In this document: in pieces, positions 5,465-12,652 of the stretch
Numbering within the stretch: position 1 is the first letter of the stretch
How the letters are laid out: each line of letters opens with the position of its first letter
Source of the DNA: an uncultured Candidatus Saccharibacteria bacterium
Lineage (GTDB): Bacteria; Patescibacteriota; UBA1384; XYA2-FULL-43-10; 1-14-0-10-43-13
NCBI GenBank assembly: GCA_964419835.1
Contig: CAYQPT010000002.1
Span: 6,732-70,731 of the forward strand
Direction of reading: 5' to 3'
DNA length: 64,000 nt
Made by a program: the position numbers and the translations under genes
Notes under the pieces: model-generated
Told to the model about the DNA's origin: nothing
Database searches by the model: none
What the model saw: the letters and a program-made list of their open reading frames with translations, nothing else

Positions 5465-5986
5465 TTAATGAACGGTCACACGAAAAGGTTCGTAATCAAT
5501 TTTAAAGCTTGCCGTGCCATCGTCACCTGCATTACCACCAGTTATTGTAATGTAGTCATCCTTAAATTTATTAATTGTCGGAGGATTGGGGCACACCCCT
5601 ATGGTAGGCGTTGCTGGCATCTTGCAGCAAAAATCGGCAGGAGTATCACAAACAAGAAAATTATTGGCTGCTACACCATTAATCGCAATCGCATAGCTGC
5701 TTGGCAAAGTAATTTTTTTTATTAACTCGCCCGTACCATCATTTTCATGCAACTCGATGGTTTTGGCAATGGTGTCAGCTTTAATAACATATCTAGATAT
5801 ACCCTGCTTCGGATTTTTTGCCATATTGCCCATTTGTTCAATCAAGGACTTGACTTCGATTGAACGCAAATTAAACTCGCTTCTTGCTCCGTATCTCGAG
5901 AAGAACGGGATAGTTAAAACCGTCATCAAACCAATAATTGCGCAAACTATTAGAAGCTCTATCAGAGTAAAAGCTTTATATTTCAT
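5465..5986 (-). CDS. pseudopilin (GspG/PulG-like), start corrected
   Basis: The internal Met starts MKYKAFTLIELLIVCAIIGLMT, a classic prepilin leader plus hydrophobic helix. The 39 codons upstream in the ORF track (to 6103) overlap the pilD CDS and are not pilin-like, so the start is placed at 5986. Confidence 0.7.
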   Translation of the reverse strand: MKYKAFTLIELLIVCAIIGLMTVLTIPFFSRYGARSEFNLRSIEVKSLIEQMGNMAKNPKQGISRYVIKADTIAKTIELHENDGTGELIKKITLPSSYAIAINGVAANNFLVCDTPADFCCKMPATPTIGVCPNPPTINKFKDDYITITGGNAGDDGTASFKIDYEPFRVTVH

Positions 5987-6075: not shown

Positions 6076-6837
6076 TCACCTTAAAAATGAACCAAAATAC
6101 CAACTTGTTATAATATTCCCAAAAAGTAAAGTTAGAAATGAGGCCAAAATTAAAAACGGAGCAAAAGGTAGAGAATCCTTTATTGTTTTATTTGCAATTT
6201 TTATATAAATCAGTCCTGCAATTGAGCCAAGCAAAAAAGCTAAAAACAAGCCAAAAACGGCTAAATGTAGACCGACTAAAAGCCCTAAAATTATCCCTAT
6301 TTTAATATCACCCGCACCCATCCATTTTTCCTTAGATACATAGACCAGTAAAGCCAAACTTCCACCGCCAATCAACCCGCCGTAAATCATATTCATAAAT
6401 CCCAAATTGCCAAAATACCAGCTCCCCAAAAAAGTTAATATGAGAGCAATCCAGACAAATATCTCCGGAGTTAATTCTGTTTTAAGGTCGTAAACAAAAA
6501 CCACCACTAAAAGGGAGAAGATTATCATATAAAATATTGCCGCCAACGAAAGGCCAAAACTCAAATACAGGAGCAAAAAGGAAAGTCCTGTTCCAATCTC
6601 TACCAATGGATACTGCCATGAAATGCTCTTACCGCAGTAACGGCATTTCGCACGAAGTAAAACAAAAGAAATAAAAGGAATTAAGTCGTACCACCCCAGA
6701 ATTTGCTTGCAATGAGGACAATGCGAACGAGAATTTAGAATAGACTTTAGGTCGTCCATTCTAAAAATGATAACATTTAAAAAACTGCCTATCACAAGAC
6801 CAATGACGAGAAACAAAAGGGAAAGTGAAATGTTCAT
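6076..6837 (-). CDS. pilD: prepilin peptidase (A24 family)
   Basis: N-terminal tetracysteine region (CPHC...CRYC), then a polytopic membrane domain with the conserved GAGD motif (WMGAGDIKI). Confidence 0.85.
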   Translation of the reverse strand: MNISLSLLFLVIGLVIGSFLNVIIFRMDDLKSILNSRSHCPHCKQILGWYDLIPFISFVLLRAKCRYCGKSISWQYPLVEIGTGLSFLLLYLSFGLSLAAIFYMIIFSLLVVVFVYDLKTELTPEIFVWIALILTFLGSWYFGNLGFMNMIYGGLIGGGSLALLVYVSKEKWMGAGDIKIGIILGLLVGLHLAVFGLFLAFLLGSIAGLIYIKIANKTIKDSLPFAPFLILASFLTLLFGNIITSWYFGSFLR

Positions 6838-6899: not shown

Positions 6900-7271
6900 T
6901 TACTTTTTTCTTGACTTATTCACGATTGATGAAAAAATTAAATTTAATTCGTTAGCTTCTTTCCAGAGTTTTCTGGAATCGTCTTTTGTTTCAGGTACTG
7001 CCTTAGTGATTATTCTAAACCAATATTTTGTCTCTTTTGATTCTTTTTTACATATTCCCAGTTTGTGTTCAAAATCCTTCTTGGTTTCCGCACAATCTGC
7101 TTCACAATAATTCGCTCCTATACTTGTACCTGATCTAATCAACTGTGTTATTAAGGGTCGTGTAATTTCATGTCTGGGTAGCTTGTTGCAAAATTCTATG
7201 ATCGCTTCTGCAAATTTGGCCGTTCTCTCTTCAAGATCATATTTTTTATTCTCAGGTCCCTCGTTTGACAT
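6900..7271 (-). CDS. four-helix-bundle protein (TIGR02436-like, 23S rRNA IVS-protein family)
   Basis: 123 aa. The IRSGTSIGANYCEA and KxxFxxKL...ESxET motifs are typical of this family. Confidence 0.7.
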   Translation of the reverse strand: MSNEGPENKKYDLEERTAKFAEAIIEFCNKLPRHEITRPLITQLIRSGTSIGANYCEADCAETKKDFEHKLGICKKESKETKYWFRIITKAVPETKDDSRKLWKEANELNLIFSSIVNKSRKK

Positions 7272-7425
7272 TTTGGCTTCGGACTTTTATTTGAAATTTG
7301 TAATTAGGATTTTGGAATTAAACTAATCTAATTATTCTAATTGAAAACTTAATTAATCTTTTCTCAAAATCATTTTTGAATTTTGAACTGTCATTTTGCA
7401 TTTTGAGTTTTGAGATTTAAATTTC

Positions 7426-7932
7426 CTAATCATTCTGCTCTGAAAAATTATATGCGGAGCCCGGCATGTCTCCTCCGAGCGGGTTCGTTTTATTTATCTC
7501 TCCATCGGATTTATTTTCTAATGCACAAAATAAAGCAAAATTCTGAGCATTACCTTCCACCCCATCCGTCTGATACAAGTAATTGTTTTGTCCCGTTGGA
7601 TCAGAAGGAACCGTTTTCATGTATGTGCTATCAAGCCCTGTATTTTCGGCGGTTACTACAACGGCAGATTTTTGATATTTGAAGGTATTTGGATTCTTGT
7701 CAGCATAATAAATACTGAGCGTTTTTTTTATTTGGGTAAGATCACTTTTTCTTTGTGCATCGCGGGTTTTCATTTTTGCATTGGATATTGCAACTAAAAT
7801 CATTGACGCCAAAATCCCGATGATGGCGATCACTACTAACAGTTCGATAAGCGTAAAGCCACGCTTACTCACTGCAAGCAATTCAATTAAGGTAAATCCT
7901 TTTCTTCTCATCTGGAATATCTTGTTTATCAT
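7426..7932 (-). CDS. type IV pilin-like protein with a tandemly duplicated prepilin N-terminal motif
   Basis: The protein reads MRRKGFTLIELLAV-SKRGFTLIELLVVIAIIGILA, i.e. two in-frame copies of the K/R-G-FTLIELL motif. They are encoded by synonymously diverged DNA (AAAGGATTTACCTTAATTGAATTGCTT vs CGTGGCTTTACGCTTATCGAACTGTTA). Confidence 0.7.
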   Translation of the reverse strand: MINKIFQMRRKGFTLIELLAVSKRGFTLIELLVVIAIIGILASMILVAISNAKMKTRDAQRKSDLTQIKKTLSIYYADKNPNTFKYQKSAVVVTAENTGLDSTYMKTVPSDPTGQNNYLYQTDGVEGNAQNFALFCALENKSDGEINKTNPLGGDMPGSAYNFSEQND

Positions 7933-8072
7933 TCGAACAAAGTGAGAACTAAAAATACTTGTTAAACTTCTCGTCCTTCTTCTTTCGAAAAATATTTCTT
8001 TTTAGCCCTTCAGTTGCTAGAGAAATTACCCGTTCGACTTTGCTCAGGGCAGGGTTTCTCTAGCATAGAAAA

Positions 8073-8498
8073 CTAAAATCCAGATTTGGTAGAGCCAGAA
8101 AAACCACCAGCAATTGTTTTTGCGGGAGTAGATCCATCGTTTGCAGCCAATGTCCAGTCTGCAGCCCCTGCAGCAGATGCAGCAGTGTTGCCTGAAGCTG
8201 AATAAGCCCAAGATCCATAGCCGTTTGCACCCGATAAAGTCGGCCAGCTGCCGGTCGCCACAGTGCTTCCTGTGCAGATTGTGGCTCCGTTTGCAGGCTT
8301 GACAACTGCTTCGCTATTTGTTGTGCAGATTGAAGCCGTCTTTGCAGCTTGTTGTAAATCGGCAAATGCCTTGGTATCAATTGCTTTTGTTCTTGCGCCG
8401 GCAACATTGATGATAATGATGGTTGCCAAAATACCAATGATAGCAATAACAACCAACAACTCGATTAAGGTAAAACCTTTTTTAAACATTTTTTTCAT
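8073..8498 (-). CDS. candidate major type IV pilin
   Basis: Start moved to MKKMFKKGFTLIELLVVIAIIGILA. An RBS (GGAGGAGG) sits 8 nt upstream at 8505-8513. Short leader, and an Ala/Gly/Ser/Thr-rich C-terminal domain of about 140 aa total. It is the smallest pilin and lies directly upstream of pilC. Confidence 0.7.
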   Translation of the reverse strand: MKKMFKKGFTLIELLVVIAIIGILATIIIINVAGARTKAIDTKAFADLQQAAKTASICTTNSEAVVKPANGATICTGSTVATGSWPTLSGANGYGSWAYSASGNTAASAAGAADWTLAANDGSTPAKTIAGGFSGSTKSGF

Positions 8499-8603
8499 TT
8501 TTTTCCTCCTCCCTGTTAAGCATCCTCGAGGATACACTTAAGCAGGGTAAATTATTACTGCCCGATCGACCTGACAGGCGATTTTTATAAATAACTCTAA
8601 CTT

Positions 8604-9809
8604 CTATTTCAACTGTGCAATATTATAAATTGGCACCAAAACGGCAAAAACCAAAAAGGCAACGCCTACTCCCATTATGACCAAAACAACCGGCTCAACT
8701 AAAGTGGAAATAGTTTTAATCATTTGGTCAGTTGCTTCCTCGTAATAATCAGCCACCTTGTTTAGCACTCCATCTAACTGTCCCGTTTCTTCTCCAACTG
8801 CCGCCATCTGCCCCACAAAAGCCGGAAAGGTCGGGTCTTTTGACAACTGGACTGACAATGGCACGCCTTTTTCAACCTGACTAGCTGCGTGCGAAATACT
8901 CTCTTCAAAAACAATGTTATTCATCACACTTCCGCCAATTTTTAATGCATCCAAAAGTGGCACTCCTGCTCCAATCAACATGGCCATAACTTTGGAAAAG
9001 CGATACATGTAGATGCCTTCAAAAACTTTTTTAATCACAGGAATTTTAAGCTGAAGCTCATCTTTCGTTCTCGCTCCGGTATTTGAACTTAGCCAGAATT
9101 TCAAAAAAACCACTAAGGCAATGGCTATCAAAAGAACGAGCCACCACTTTGTTTGAACAAACCCCGAAAGGGCAAGCAACATTCTTGTGGCTAGGGGCAA
9201 ATTTGCACCGGCGCTATCAAAAACAGTTTTTAACTGTGGGATAACTACTAAAAGCATATATGTTCCAATCCCCAACAATGCAACCAAAATGAAACCGGGG
9301 TAGTACATTGCCCCTTTTACCTTGCCGTTAAAATTGTTGTCATTTTCCAATTGATCCGCCTGTTGCTTTAATACAACATCAAGTTTGCCCGTACTCTCCC
9401 CCGCCGTCACAATAGAAATAAATACTTTATCAAAAGCTTCCGGATGCTTTGCTAAGGCGTTAGAAAAACTCATTCCTTCTTCTAGATCCTTGAATATTTC
9501 AGTATATATGCTTCGTAAATAGTCAGTTCGGGCTTGGGTGCTAGTAATCTTAATTGCCTTAGGAAGGGGAAGTCCGGCCGAGATCATTGTTGAAATTTGC
9601 CTTGCAAAGATGGAGCGGTCTTTAGCATTTACCTTTTTGCCAAATCCTATCACCCTGCTATTGGAACTGCCTTTTTCAGAAGTAATATCTAAAGTAATTA
9701 AATTGTGTTTAACTAAAATACCCTCCGCCTCACTCTGACTTGCAGCTTTGACAGTACCGGTAATAATTTCGTTCCTACTATTTTTTGCTCTGTATAGAAA
9801 AGTTTTCAT
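8604..9809 (-). CDS. pilC: type IV pilus assembly platform protein PilC (GspF family)
   Basis: 401 aa. Two GspF-type repeats with three TM segments. Confidence 0.85.
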   Translation of the reverse strand: MKTFLYRAKNSRNEIITGTVKAASQSEAEGILVKHNLITLDITSEKGSSNSRVIGFGKKVNAKDRSIFARQISTMISAGLPLPKAIKITSTQARTDYLRSIYTEIFKDLEEGMSFSNALAKHPEAFDKVFISIVTAGESTGKLDVVLKQQADQLENDNNFNGKVKGAMYYPGFILVALLGIGTYMLLVVIPQLKTVFDSAGANLPLATRMLLALSGFVQTKWWLVLLIAIALVVFLKFWLSSNTGARTKDELQLKIPVIKKVFEGIYMYRFSKVMAMLIGAGVPLLDALKIGGSVMNNIVFEESISHAASQVEKGVPLSVQLSKDPTFPAFVGQMAAVGEETGQLDGVLNKVADYYEEATDQMIKTISTLVEPVVLVIMGVGVAFLVFAVLVPIYNIAQLK

Positions 9810-9840: not shown

Positions 9841-10908
9841 TTAATAGACCATCATCTTGAAGCTCTTTGGATCCTGCACCCAAGTAAGGGCATCTTCAAG
9901 TGTGATGTCACCACGGGAAACATATTCGGCCAAAACCTTGTCTAAACTAATCATGCCTTCAGAGGCAGAAGTTTGAATTACATTTGGTATTTGATAAGAT
10001 TTTCCCTCGCGAATTAAACTCTTAATAGCTGAATTTGCAATCATAATCTCAGCAGCCATCACCCGTCCACCATTAACTTTAGGAATTAAACGCTGTGACA
10101 CAACACCAAGCAGAACCGATGCAAGCTGGCTTGAAACCTGTTGACGCATATATGAGGGAAAAACGCTGATTATACGATCTGCGGTCTGCGCAGCTGAGTT
10201 TGTATGCAAAGTGGCAAAAACCAAGTGACCTGTTTCTGCGATTGTTAATGCCGCTTCAATCGTTTCCAAGTCTCGCATCTCACCCACAAGCACTACATCA
10301 GGGTCTTCCCGCAAAGCCGATCTTAGCGCGGTGGCAAATGAGTCGGTATCCGGACCAATTTCCCGCTGAGAAACTATACTTTTATTGTGTTCAAAAACAT
10401 ACTCAATCGGATCTTCAATAGTAATGATATGTTTTCTTTGGTTTTCATTAATCCCGTTTATAAGCGCTGCTAGCGTCGTGGATTTACCCGACCCGGTTGG
10501 GCCAGACAACACCACAAAACCTTGGCTATGCTGAGTGAATTTTTCCAAGATCGGAGGAAGACCGAGCTCTTTAATTGATTTGATTTGCTTTGGAATTAAT
10601 CGAAGAGAGACTGCTTCACATCCTTTTTGATAGTATATGTTCACCCTAAAACGCATGTCCTTATATCCAAAAGAAAAATCAAGTTCTTTTGTCCTCTTGA
10701 ACTTTTCTATCATGGCCGGAGGAGTAAAACTGGAAATAAATTCTGTTAATTTTTCATTGGTACAAACAGGAGCTTCAGGAATCACAAGAAGGCGTCCGTC
10801 GATTCTTACAGTTGGAGCAATACCAACTGTAAAATGAAGGTCGGATGCTTTCTTTCCAATCGCAAAATCGAGATACGAAACCATCTCATCGTTTAATTTG
10901 TTTTCCAC
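9841..10908 (-). CDS. pilT: twitching-motility/retraction ATPase PilT
   Basis: 355 aa. Walker A GPTGSGKSTT, and the signature helix IITIEDPIE typical of PilT-type ATPases. Confidence 0.85.
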   Translation of the reverse strand: MENKLNDEMVSYLDFAIGKKASDLHFTVGIAPTVRIDGRLLVIPEAPVCTNEKLTEFISSFTPPAMIEKFKRTKELDFSFGYKDMRFRVNIYYQKGCEAVSLRLIPKQIKSIKELGLPPILEKFTQHSQGFVVLSGPTGSGKSTTLAALINGINENQRKHIITIEDPIEYVFEHNKSIVSQREIGPDTDSFATALRSALREDPDVVLVGEMRDLETIEAALTIAETGHLVFATLHTNSAAQTADRIISVFPSYMRQQVSSQLASVLLGVVSQRLIPKVNGGRVMAAEIMIANSAIKSLIREGKSYQIPNVIQTSASEGMISLDKVLAEYVSRGDITLEDALTWVQDPKSFKMMVY

Positions 10909-11116: not shown

Positions 11117-12652
11117 CTATCCTTGCATCGTTGCCTGGTAAACTTCATCGATCGTTGTCAGCCCTTGAAGTGCTTTAATAATTCCATCTTGCTTCATTGT
11201 AATCATGCCCTGCTTCAACACCGCATCTTTAATCTCATTGGCAGATCTTCTCGCAATAGCCAAGTCTTCAATAGCCGGATTCATGCTCATCACCTCAAAA
11301 ATACCGATTCTGCCTTTAAAACCTTGTGAGCATTCTGAACAACCCTTTCCATAGTAAAATTTGAGTTCCTTGGGAATAAGTGCTCTATCTTTAACATTAT
11401 TAGGTGATATTTTTTCTAATTCAACTTTGATCTGTTCTAGCAATTTTGGGGGAATTTTAACTTCCTCTCTGCACTTCGGACAAATTAGACGAATTAATCT
11501 CTGCGCAATAATTAAATCCACGGCAGAAGTAATAAGAAATGGTTCAACGCCCATATTTATAAGCCGAGGCAGTGCTCCAGCGGTATCATTCGTATGAAGT
11601 GTGGTCAAAACCAAATGTCCGGTTAAAGCGGCATGTGTTGCCATGCCGGCAGTTTCAGCATCACGAACCTCACCTACCATTATAATGTTAGGATCCTGCC
11701 TTAGTACGGAACGCAATCCCGACGCGAAGGTAAAGCCGATGTCTGGTTTGACTTGGCACTGGTTTACTCCCGGAGTCTCGTACTCCACCGGATCTTCAAG
11801 TGTAACAATATTTTTTCCAGGTAAGTTTAGCCGATTAATAATTGCGTTTAGCGTAGTTGATTTTCCGGAACCGGTCGGACCTGTGGATAAAATTAAACCC
11901 CATGGCTTAACAATTGAGGCCATTGTTTTGTCAATAGCGCTTCCCTGCATTCCAAGGTCCTCCAAGGAAAGAACCTTTTGGCTTTTATCGAGAATTCTGA
12001 GAACTATCTTCTCACCGTGAACAGTTGGAAGAGAAGAAACTCTGACATCAACTTCACGGTTTTTAAAAGCGACCTCAAAACGACCATCCTGAGGGATTCT
12101 CGTTTCATCAATTTTTAACTTTGCCAAAATTTTTACTCTGGAAATAATTGGAGGATGCATATTTATTGAAATTTTTACAATGTCTACGAGCACTCCATCA
12201 ATTCTACACCTAACTCGGAGAGTTTTTGATTGTGGCTCTATGTGAATGTCGGAAACCCCTTTATTCAAACCAAAATTAATAACTGCTGCAACAATTTTTG
12301 GAACATACCCCTCTTTGACTATTTCATCTAGTATTTTTGTATCAGTGATGTCAGTTTGGATTAAAGATCCTAAATTATCATTCTCCAAACCATTGCTCGG
12401 CATGGGAGTGCTTAATTCTTCGCTTGAAGGCAATGCTCTTGTTTGCTGCTTCTGATTTGCGATGGGCAGCGGAGCTTTATTTGGCTGATCCTTAGAAGGC
12501 GCGACTGTAGTGTTTTGTGCTGAAGAGGGTTGTGATGGTGTTTGCGTCTGACTATCATCTTTTGCAAACTCAGGATCAAAAAAACCGCTCAATGAGATGG
12601 TTTTTCCTCCAGATGGTGCTGCATTTTTTAATGCTGTTTGGTTCTGATCCAT
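11117..12652 (-). CDS. pilB: type IV pilus assembly ATPase PilB (GspE family)
   Basis: 511 aa. Walker A TGPTGSGKSTTL. A tetracysteine zinc motif (CPKC...CSEC). Low-complexity N-terminal region. Confidence 0.85.
   Translation of the reverse strand: MDQNQTALKNAAPSGGKTISLSGFFDPEFAKDDSQTQTPSQPSSAQNTTVAPSKDQPNKAPLPIANQKQQTRALPSSEELSTPMPSNGLENDNLGSLIQTDITDTKILDEIVKEGYVPKIVAAVINFGLNKGVSDIHIEPQSKTLRVRCRIDGVLVDIVKISINMHPPIISRVKILAKLKIDETRIPQDGRFEVAFKNREVDVRVSSLPTVHGEKIVLRILDKSQKVLSLEDLGMQGSAIDKTMASIVKPWGLILSTGPTGSGKSTTLNAIINRLNLPGKNIVTLEDPVEYETPGVNQCQVKPDIGFTFASGLRSVLRQDPNIIMVGEVRDAETAGMATHAALTGHLVLTTLHTNDTAGALPRLINMGVEPFLITSAVDLIIAQRLIRLICPKCREEVKIPPKLLEQIKVELEKISPNNVKDRALIPKELKFYYGKGCSECSQGFKGRIGIFEVMSMNPAIEDLAIARRSANEIKDAVLKQGMITMKQDGIIKALQGLTTIDEVYQATMQG

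Follow-up and report, generated by a model that had tools for sequence, protein, structure and literature searches.

Palindromic DNA lying in frame within protein-coding genes is known from the Rickettsia palindromic elements (RPEs), which are selfish DNA (Ogata et al. 2000, reviewed in PMC10969869). Like these elements and the intragenic MITEs (PMC10969869), the 39-nt module described here, from the 5′ end of a pilin gene, is palindromic, hairpin-forming, in frame, translated and apparently tolerated, and as with the RPEs it is present in one and absent from the other of two close relatives (the 39-nt indel between loci L009 and L047, discussed below). It differs from the RPEs in several ways: its length is 39 nt, against about 100-150 bp for the RPEs; all copies found lie at the 5′ end of pilin-type genes, in several phyla; one of its arms is the host gene's own conserved coding motif; and its peptide is predicted to be removed by a signal peptidase, whereas the RPE peptide stays in the mature protein. 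Nor does the module show the dispersed copies, the target-site duplication or the length of about 100-400 bp of the RPE and MITE class; a junction search and a covariance model found a single copy in the window, by which we mean the whole 64-kb stretch of DNA analysed, with no further junction copy on either of its strands.

Three further groups of sequences invite comparison. Template switching creates and maintains hairpins (PMC8794818), and such template-switch (quasi-palindrome) mutations are also the subject of PMC8604942; the R-L-R layout of the module, with a direct repeat on either side of a reverse-complement copy, is the product expected of a fold-back switch, and the multi-base compensatory changes seen in it are likewise expected from such a mechanism. 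In contrast to a fresh local template switch, however, the left arm of the module (with TCGAT changed to GAGG) is common to all lineages, and its second motif copy (R2) is unlike the local first copy (R1). Coding palindromes (PMC6649704) can reach 284 bp and are perfect, lineage-specific and retained in mature proteins; as in the module, both arms of the inverted repeat are translated, and the constraints of protein and hairpin fall on the same bases. REP elements are high-copy and extragenic with a GTAG head, and the module begins with GTAG or GCAG and ends with CTAC or CTGY; we rejected a REP element mobilised by a RAYT (Y1) transposase, given that the module is intragenic, single-copy in the window and found across phyla.

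The gene that carries the module, here called pilin2, shares with type IV pilins and their class III signal peptides the G↓FxxxE motif (the arrow marks the cleavage site), the hydrophobic α-1N helix and the lollipop fold, and genes for PilD, PilB, PilC and PilT are likewise found in its cluster; it differs in a leader of 18 residues (25 if counted from ATG 7932) which contains a second, near-complete G↓FTLIELL. Type IVb pilin leaders have roughly 15-30 residues, and their length is likewise compatible with processing by prepilin peptidase; these leaders, however, are not known to contain a repeated cleavage motif, and both the helix and the neighbours of pilin2 are type IVa/GspG-like.

We put at about even odds (a probability of roughly 0.5) the reading that the module is a tolerated or selfish coding palindrome, removed together with the leader by prepilin peptidase.

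Two prepilin motifs in one pilin gene

The window has a G+C content of 39%, and its nearest named homologues are from Patescibacteria. Its minus strand carries an operon-like type IV pilus cluster: genes for a PilB-like ATPase (11117-12652), a PilT-like ATPase (9841-10908) and a PilC-like platform protein (8604-9809), all three from Pfam T2SSF/T2SSE searches, the two adjoining pilin genes pilin1 (8073..8498) and pilin2 (7426..7911), and the gene for a PilD-like prepilin peptidase (6076..6837; Pfam A24_N_bact 6.6e-33, Peptidase_A24 4.6e-09). Further pilin-like genes are also present, and a gene of the 23S-rRNA-IVS-type four-helix-bundle kind (6900-7271) sits between pilin2 and the peptidase. 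The order of the pilus genes is shared by L001, L005, L009 and L012. The upstream paralogue pilin1 has a single motif, MKKMFKKG↓FTLIELLVV, in ordinary codons, and the sequence AGGAGG stands 6 nt ahead of its start at ATG 8498.

Motif, fold and context identify pilin2, the second pilin gene of the cluster, as a type IV pilin. It encodes 161 aa from ATG 7911, or 168 aa in a longer form from ATG 7932 (7426..7932, minus strand), which begins MINKIFQ-MRRKG↓FTLIELLAV-SKRG↓FTLIELLVVIAIIG. The N-terminal G/A(-1), F(+1) and E(+5) with the hydrophobic helix are present, and complete at the second copy of the motif; the AlphaFold model has the lollipop fold, a long N-terminal helix on a small β-sheet; and genes for a prepilin peptidase and for assembly ATPases and platform protein lie nearby. 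We rejected an assignment as the T2SS major pseudopilin GspG: TIGR01710 scores 60.4 bits, below its cut-off of 88.85, and PF08334 scores 19.5, below its cut-off of 21, which makes pilin2 GspG-like but not a GspG equivalog.

The doubled motif is real, as judged from the translation of the reading frame and from the two separate stretches matched in pilin2 both by Pfam N_methyl (PF07963; 8.1e-13) and by TIGR02532 (53.2 bits against a cut-off of 16.3). Copy 1 (R1), which comprises Gly(-1) and FTLIEL, lies at 7879..7899 on the minus strand and reads GGA TTT ACC TTA ATT GAA TTG; the first G↓F site is formed by Gly 7899-7897 and Phe 7896-7894. The 39-nt module (7840..7878, minus strand; CTT GCA GTG AGT AAG CGT GGC TTT ACG CTT ATC GAA CTG) codes for L A V S K R G F T L I E L and lies in frame, separating codon 6 of the mature pilin from codon 7. 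Its hairpin has a left arm (L; 7860..7875, minus strand; GCAGTGAGTAAGCGTG), which codes for (A)VSKR(G) and holds an in-frame GTG at 7872-7870, and a right arm (R2; 7839..7855, minus strand; TACGCTTATCGAACTGT), which is the second F T L I E L copy. The second G↓F site (Gly 7860-7858, Phe 7857-7855), together with the hydrophobic α-1N segment FTLIELLVVIAIIGILASMILVAI (7786..7860, minus strand), would be the productive site and the mature N-terminus. A first-pass annotation of the sequence had counted 12 differing positions between the two 27-nt copies; we count 11.

That annotation had also argued that the doubling is neither a recent slippage product nor an assembly duplicate, and both are ruled out. 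Four independent sequencing runs yielded contigs that encode the identical protein (P0001), and their DNA agrees at every position of the aligned 5′ region; the feature is also carried by orthologues: the syntenic P0002 (78% identity) reads ...KA FTLIELPAV RKRG FTLIELL..., and the syntenic P0042 (48% identity) begins MKRKG FTLIELPVV RKRA FTLIELL..., an example of the carriers with Ala at -1 of the second site.

Distribution among relatives and across phyla

With the 41-residue N-terminus as query, an exhaustive phmmer search across 1.84 billion representative proteins returned 353 matches at E <= 0.001, and 68 of the best 149 of these have N-terminal tandem motifs, 11-25 residues apart; the duplicated N-terminus, which the first-pass annotation had proposed to look for in homologous pilins, is a recurrent arrangement. 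Among the same best 149 matches, 52 of the 79 junctions show a period of 13 residues, and in 68 of the 79 the upstream copy has Pro at +7. Val precedes the linker in 47 of the 52 period-13 junctions, and the junctions follow the stereotype (P)(A/V)V(R/S)KR(G/A). Up to four motif copies per protein were counted by regular expression, and five by eye in P0121. The tandem-motif proteins are 89-389 residues long and comprise Patescibacteria-type pilins and "LLPALNKARE"-type proteins, the latter being typical of Planctomycetes and Verrucomicrobia. A second profile search, with tandem N-termini against a set of 5.8 billion proteins, returned mostly short single-motif fragments and 10 tandem ones, and supplied four extra DNA loci. 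Although present in many public metagenome proteins, the tandem feature is without description in the literature that we searched, full text and peptide strings included, in agreement with the earlier remark that no pilin of this kind had been described.

At the DNA level, a codon-unbiased degenerate pattern found 12 loci in 185,579 GTDB species genomes, an exact-pattern scan of a kind that misses diverged copies just as protein databases reveal in-frame copies only; all 12 are in metagenome-assembled genomes, and the hosts are Berkelbacteria, Saccharibacteria, another Patescibacterium, Verrucomicrobiota and Phycisphaerae. The genuine matches in a metagenome scan with a 19-mer also number 12, all of them in pilin 5′ ends; five non-pilin matches lack the right arm and look like chance, and that scan found no copies outside pilin genes. 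In all, about 25 DNA examples are available, some of them related, and apart from the tandem arrays there is one module per locus. A phage origin was rejected, the junction having no match in 2.9 million viral contigs.

Presence and absence of the module can be followed between close relatives. From the start codon on, the DNA of L009 (encoding P0042) is about 95% identical to that of its closest relative L047 (encoding P0088); the one large change between them is a clean gap of 39 nt, which spans exactly CCT...CTA. At 5 of its 18 bases the FTLIEL insert of L009 departs from the codons of the host, and it is therefore not a local duplication; a simple tandem slippage duplication is rejected on this ground, given the about 95% identical flanks, and also on the likeness of copy 2, but not of copy 1, across phyla. 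The L009/L047 junction has no target-site duplication, and no mobilising enzyme for the module was found; with no element found either, an insertion of the IS200/IS605 type and the att scar of an integrative element were dismissed as sources, though either might still account for mobilisation of the module. An invertible, shufflon-type pilin switch was dismissed in view of the lack of an inverted second junction copy in the window. Programmed bypass, as in T4 gene 60 and the mitochondrial "byps", and frameshifting were likewise rejected, the module being in frame with no stop codon and no slippery site.

None of the six sequences nearest to P0042, which are 76-80% identical to it over the mature part, has the module; their leaders are short and ordinary, and the smallest clade that holds all three module-bearing orthologues comprises 73 of 120 sequences. 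PilC of L012, a locus without the module, is 78.5% identical to that of the window, whereas PilC of the module-bearing L009 is 57% identical. Together with the L009/L047 pair, the clade size and the PilC identities require repeated gain and/or loss. Comparison of the window with L012 by eye gives the same module boundaries, and a look-up within 90% clusters found no shorter allele without the block. The window and L005, as a pair, appear to have inherited the module vertically.

Conservation and pairing of the 39-nt module

Nucleotide conservation was assessed in 15 loci collected without codon bias. Conservation extends over exactly 39 nt, the length of one repeat period, and the consensus elsewhere is CCT GTA GTG AGG AAG CGT GGC/GCT TTT ACG CTT ATC GAA CTA. 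Lys is AAG in 15 of 15 loci (never AAA), Arg is CGT or CGC in 14 of 15 (never AGA), and ACG, CTT and ATC each occur in 13 of 15; these near-fixed codons hold even in A+T-rich genomes. The codons of copy 1 vary with lineage, with four Thr codons and four Leu codons across the 15 loci, and those downstream of the module vary freely. The mean pairwise difference per site is 0.276 in copy 1, 0.149 in the junction, 0.130 in copy 2 and 0.31 in the next four codons, and of the 105 locus pairs, 89 differ more in copy 1 than in copy 2. Comparison of the window, L005 and L009 shows conservation at synonymous sites within the module but divergence in the flanks.

Read as its reverse complement, the junction GTAGTGAGGAAGCGTG imperfectly matches the stretch that codes for the second FTLIEL, (C/T)ACGCTTATCGAACTAC, and the two arms fold into a 14-bp hairpin. 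As RNA, the segment 7880-7834 has a minimum free energy of -18.8 kcal/mol (z = -3.68), which none of 200 shuffled sequences equals. In the alignment of 20 loci the paired fraction is 93.9% of cells and falls to 33-43% once the partners are slid, and 0 of 500 shuffles reach the observed pairing score, although these covariation controls do not separate selection from homogenisation by template switching. Pair 11-45, which joins the second base of an Ala/Val codon to the third base of Leu6 over a distance of 34 nt, covaries (UA 9, CG 7, UG 2); L019 has a double compensatory change, GCAAC/GTTGC. Palindromes are also remade from other bases where the linker length differs: AAGGGT/ACCCTT in L045, which has period 12; a perfect 12-bp AAGCGTGAAAGC/GCTTTCACGCTT in a period-16 variant; and AAAACC/GGTTTT and AAACGC/GCGTTT in other variants. 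The stem of L030 is a perfect 12 bp. A covariance model built from the alignment has a single match in the window, at 7831-7884 with 73.9 bits; ordinary pilin 5′ ends score 10-19 bits.

If pairing is required, the basic residues of the leader can come only from Thr ACG opposite CGT Arg and Leu CTT opposite AAG Lys. A perfect reverse complement read in frame would give P V V R stop A stop; the shared imperfection (TCGAT to GAGG), one base shorter, keeps the frame open. Much of the constancy of the module follows from these restrictions, namely the dual coding of both arms and the need for an open frame.

Hairpin and conservation could instead belong to a cis element in the pilin mRNA or DNA which benefits the host, acting for example on mRNA stability, processing, translation rate or pilin gene recombination, with the doubled peptide motif as its by-product. 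We hold this, the main rival reading, to be possible but on balance doubtful. It would account for a 14-bp stem with compensatory changes, unmatched in 500 shuffles and with slid controls at 33-43% paired, for linker variants that rebuild the palindrome from other bases, for the folding z of -3.68 in the window, and for synonymous sites of the module that are kept between the window, L005 and L009 while the flanks diverged. A host function sits less well with the patchy occurrence of the hairpin, missing from relatives at 76-80% protein or about 95% flank DNA identity, and with just 12 loci found by the exact-pattern scan of 185,579 species genomes; moreover, its presence in unrelated pilin-like families and in arrays of 3-5 copies looks more like the dynamics of repeats and indels, and template switching and dual coding can yield covariation without selection (PMC8794818). 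The hairpin has no Rfam family, and a known RNA family was rejected, the only match being to a microRNA at E 0.17, which is chance. It has no terminator tail and sequesters neither a Shine-Dalgarno site nor the start codon, and a scan of 7300-8700 for promoters and terminators gave nothing above chance. Covariation and low synonymous change fit a selected host function equally well, also in the pair formed by the window and L005, and to that extent they count against reading the module as a passenger.

Translation, cleavage and origin

As a rule both motifs are translated in the class, since 17 of the 21 loci with the module have, ahead of copy 1, an in-frame ATG or GTG preceded by a Shine-Dalgarno (SD) site. 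This answers, for the class, the concern raised with the first description that copy 1 might lie upstream of the true start. The start of the window gene itself is less certain, because no SD site stands ahead of ATG 7932, ATG 7911 or GTG 7872; about half of the genes in the window are without one.

Where the mature protein begins is indicated by several comparisons. All full-length pilin family models align to pilin2 from residue 16-17 onward, the AlphaFold model has its helix from residue 21, with residues 1-20 at low confidence, and family models and structure prediction together would thus place the true pilin N-terminus at the second motif. Consistent with this, 107 of the 120 closest homologues have no upstream motif or remnant of one and align at the second site. 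In prepilins the basic leader stays cytoplasmic, and the peptidase acts at the cytoplasmic face of the membrane. Given this topology, and a copy 1 with just 9 hydrophobic residues and usually a Pro, we infer that the second G↓F is the productive prepilin-peptidase site and that the mature pilin is an ordinary one.

That both sites are used and selected at the protein level seems unlikely to us, and the data can be explained without such selection. Such a design might serve alternative processing, a decoy or extra docking site for the peptidase, or the release of a 13-residue FTLIEL(P/L)xV(R/S)KRG peptide, several at a time from arrays, which would behave like polyprotein precursors. Despite many synonymous changes, copy 1 does retain G/A at -1, F at +1 and E at +5, and the module is always in frame and stop-free, in expressed-looking genes. 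Copy 1 is, however, the host's original N-terminus, and its conservation may reflect recent insertion, or ascertainment, since protein databases show in-frame copies only. Degenerate first copies exist, moreover (KA↓FTLIELP in P0002, PVTSIEL in L042, ACDPVEL in L015); Pro at +7 in 68 of 79 junctions, with 9 hydrophobic residues, makes a poor membrane-embedded substrate; and what is conserved is the nucleotide sequence rather than the residues.

Initiation at the in-frame GTG (7872-7870) before SKRG, which would leave copy 1 as 5′ untranslated sequence and a single motif in the protein, we find very doubtful. A start there would give GTG-SKRG↓F, a short leader of textbook form; among the 15 codon-unbiased loci, 13 have GTG immediately ahead of the linker, Val stands there in 47 of 52 period-13 junctions, and neither ATG of the window gene has an SD site. 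The census of start sites and the pairing of the stem nevertheless largely reject it: the 17 of 21 loci with an SD-preceded start upstream of copy 1 face only one with an SD-like motif ahead of the internal codon, which there is GCG, and copy 1 remains open and in frame. Conservation of the GTG needs no initiation to explain it, as its G and T are base-paired in the stem, and in L019 the codon is ACG, with compensating partners.

The first-pass suggestion that two pilin N-termini were fused or tandemly duplicated long ago, with later divergence of their codons, is barely tenable: the two motifs do differ at 11 of 27 bases, but the junction is the reverse complement of the motif, in a covarying hairpin, and not the leader of a second gene; R2 and the junction are near-identical in DNA across phyla as parts of a near-invariant 39-nt module, while R1 is lineage-specific; and the clean 39-nt indel between close relatives, with an insert 5/18 off the host copy in flanks about 95% identical to those of L047, argues against divergence in place.

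We return to the reading of the module as a tolerated or selfish coding palindrome. The gene has the architecture R1-L-R2, in which R1 is the pilin's own FTLIEL codons, R2 a second FTLIEL in fixed codons, and L an imperfect reverse complement of the FTLIEL codons which happens to read (P/L)(A/V)V(R/S)KR. Under this reading the preprotein would have a leader of 18 residues that includes a pseudo-site; the basic SKRG and the full hydrophobic helix would put only the second G↓F at the cytoplasmic face of the membrane, and prepilin peptidase would cut there to give an ordinary mature pilin, so that the module would be silent, or nearly so, at the protein level. Its survival in the leader region of a pilin, the one part of the protein from which surplus residues are thrown away, would be explained by its bringing its own cleavage site and the first six residues.

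The module may have arisen when a fold-back template switch copied a pilin 5′ end, with later repair to an open frame; as a neutral or selfish indel it may then have been kept and passed on between pilin genes, either by recombination at the conserved 5′ end or by transposition; its constancy would be kept by the dual-coding arms and by template switching that homogenises them. Spread by RecA-type recombination is made difficult by the distance across phyla and the short, imperfect flanks. A single origin followed by spread is suggested by the sequences, since all lineages share the imperfect left arm and an R2 unlike the local R1. More tentatively, the module may represent an undescribed family of miniature coding palindromes that specifically target, in several phyla, the part of type IV pilin and pseudopilin-like genes which codes for the class III signal peptide; such palindromes would bring their own replacement cleavage site and N-terminus, would be removed by prepilin peptidase, in effect as parasitic inserts spliced out of the protein, and would still be moving between genes and genomes. 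Arrays of the module might release small FTLIELPxVRKRG peptides.

Should the reading as a palindrome removed with the leader be right, the cleavable pilin leader would be a safe harbour in which in-frame insertions are hidden from selection, and thereby a new route of survival for selfish or neutral DNA in an essential, highly expressed surface-protein gene. The module would also offer a compact natural case in which two coding arms and a hairpin constrain one another such that only ACG/CGT and CTT/AAG fit, and would illustrate how conservation at the nucleotide level across phyla can arise. For practical annotation it would mean that automated signal-peptide tools and gene callers misplace the mature N-terminus of such proteins, in which a second site is to be expected. 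Pili are central to the episymbiotic lifestyle in Patescibacteria; if the hairpin instead regulates pilin expression, it would be a cis element common to the Patescibacteria and the PVC group.

Unusual copies of the module

The module, the hairpin-forming in-frame insert in the pilin leader, is repeated in a Verrucomicrobiota gene (L015, 98-229, minus strand), which has an array of four motifs reading AFTLVEL PAVSKR ACDPVEL PAVSRR ACDPVEL PAVSRR GFTLVELL. The internal right arms of this array have degenerated in concert, a pattern typical of tandem-repeat turnover. The GC-rich locus L034 (83-221, minus strand) has two copies of the module with REP-like sequence between them; the palindrome of the second copy is more perfect (GTAGTGAGGTAGTGTAAAGCC/GGCTTTACACTTATCGAACTAC) and contains an in-frame TAG, which rules out readthrough of this copy. 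Two unrelated module-bearing genes, in L026 (about 8352 onward in reverse-complement coordinates, minus strand) and L035 (882-960), share the same early end soon after the module, ...LLVVI(A/V)GRWRFY followed by a stop codon, which could mean that both have the same frameshift, that another insert is present or that these are pseudogenes.

In L014, TATAAT lies 3 nt 5' of the ATG of the module-bearing gene, and there is no Shine-Dalgarno site 5' of this ATG; the transcript may be leaderless.

Other inserts and unusual features at pilin N-termini

A second type of in-frame leader insert, distinct from the module, has its source in CCCTGAGCGAAGTCGAAGGG-like sequence. Depending on the frame it encodes '(T/A)LSESKG' or 'PERSRKG' directly N-terminal to FTLIELL, and it is at times bordered by a repeat of GGNTTTAC, so that part of the motif is duplicated ('GFT...GFT'). 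This insert is found in DNA at L010 925-955 (protein P0003), L016 about 5548-5575 and L031 about 130-170, and in the proteins P0015, P0046, P0048, P0052, P0031 and P0097.

Two further oddities recur among the pilin-like proteins: two full FTLIELLVVIAII segments with a linker between them that is conserved and about 45-60 residues long ('SFPGEKKVGKEKP...APRKKGR'), and a conserved 'AARKVAQIFNLLYRGFAIRLAAGFSKLRRDLRAVCRMQFGDTADCK' stretch immediately C-terminal to the helix. Both may be translated repeat elements; the proteins, both kinds taken together, are P0128, P0183-P0185, P0235, P0237, P0241, P0249 and P0262, and P0136, P0147, P0156, P0252 and P0256.

The surroundings of the pilin genes

The longest reading frame of pilin1, the single-motif paralogue upstream of the module-bearing pilin, starts at GTG 8537 (window 8498-8537, minus strand). 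AGGAGG 6 nt 5' of ATG 8498 supports the latter as the true start, from which the product begins MKKMFKKG-FTL (hyphen, cleavage site).

The pilin1 stop codon is immediately followed by a stem, GCTAGAGAAA/TTTCTCTAGC, that is conserved between the window (8016-8064, minus strand), L005 (2766-2838) and L012 (3822-3845). Its loop is 4 nt in L012; in the window (ccctgccctgagcaaagtcgaacggg) and in L005 it contains GC-rich inserts, as if invaded by small elements.

A gene of the 23S-rRNA-intervening-sequence type, encoding a four-helix bundle, lies between the pilin and prepilin peptidase genes in the window (6900-7271, minus strand) and likewise in L005, and immediately after the pilin on the short contig L010. 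L009 and L012 lack it at the corresponding site, which suggests that it was inserted into the pilus cluster.
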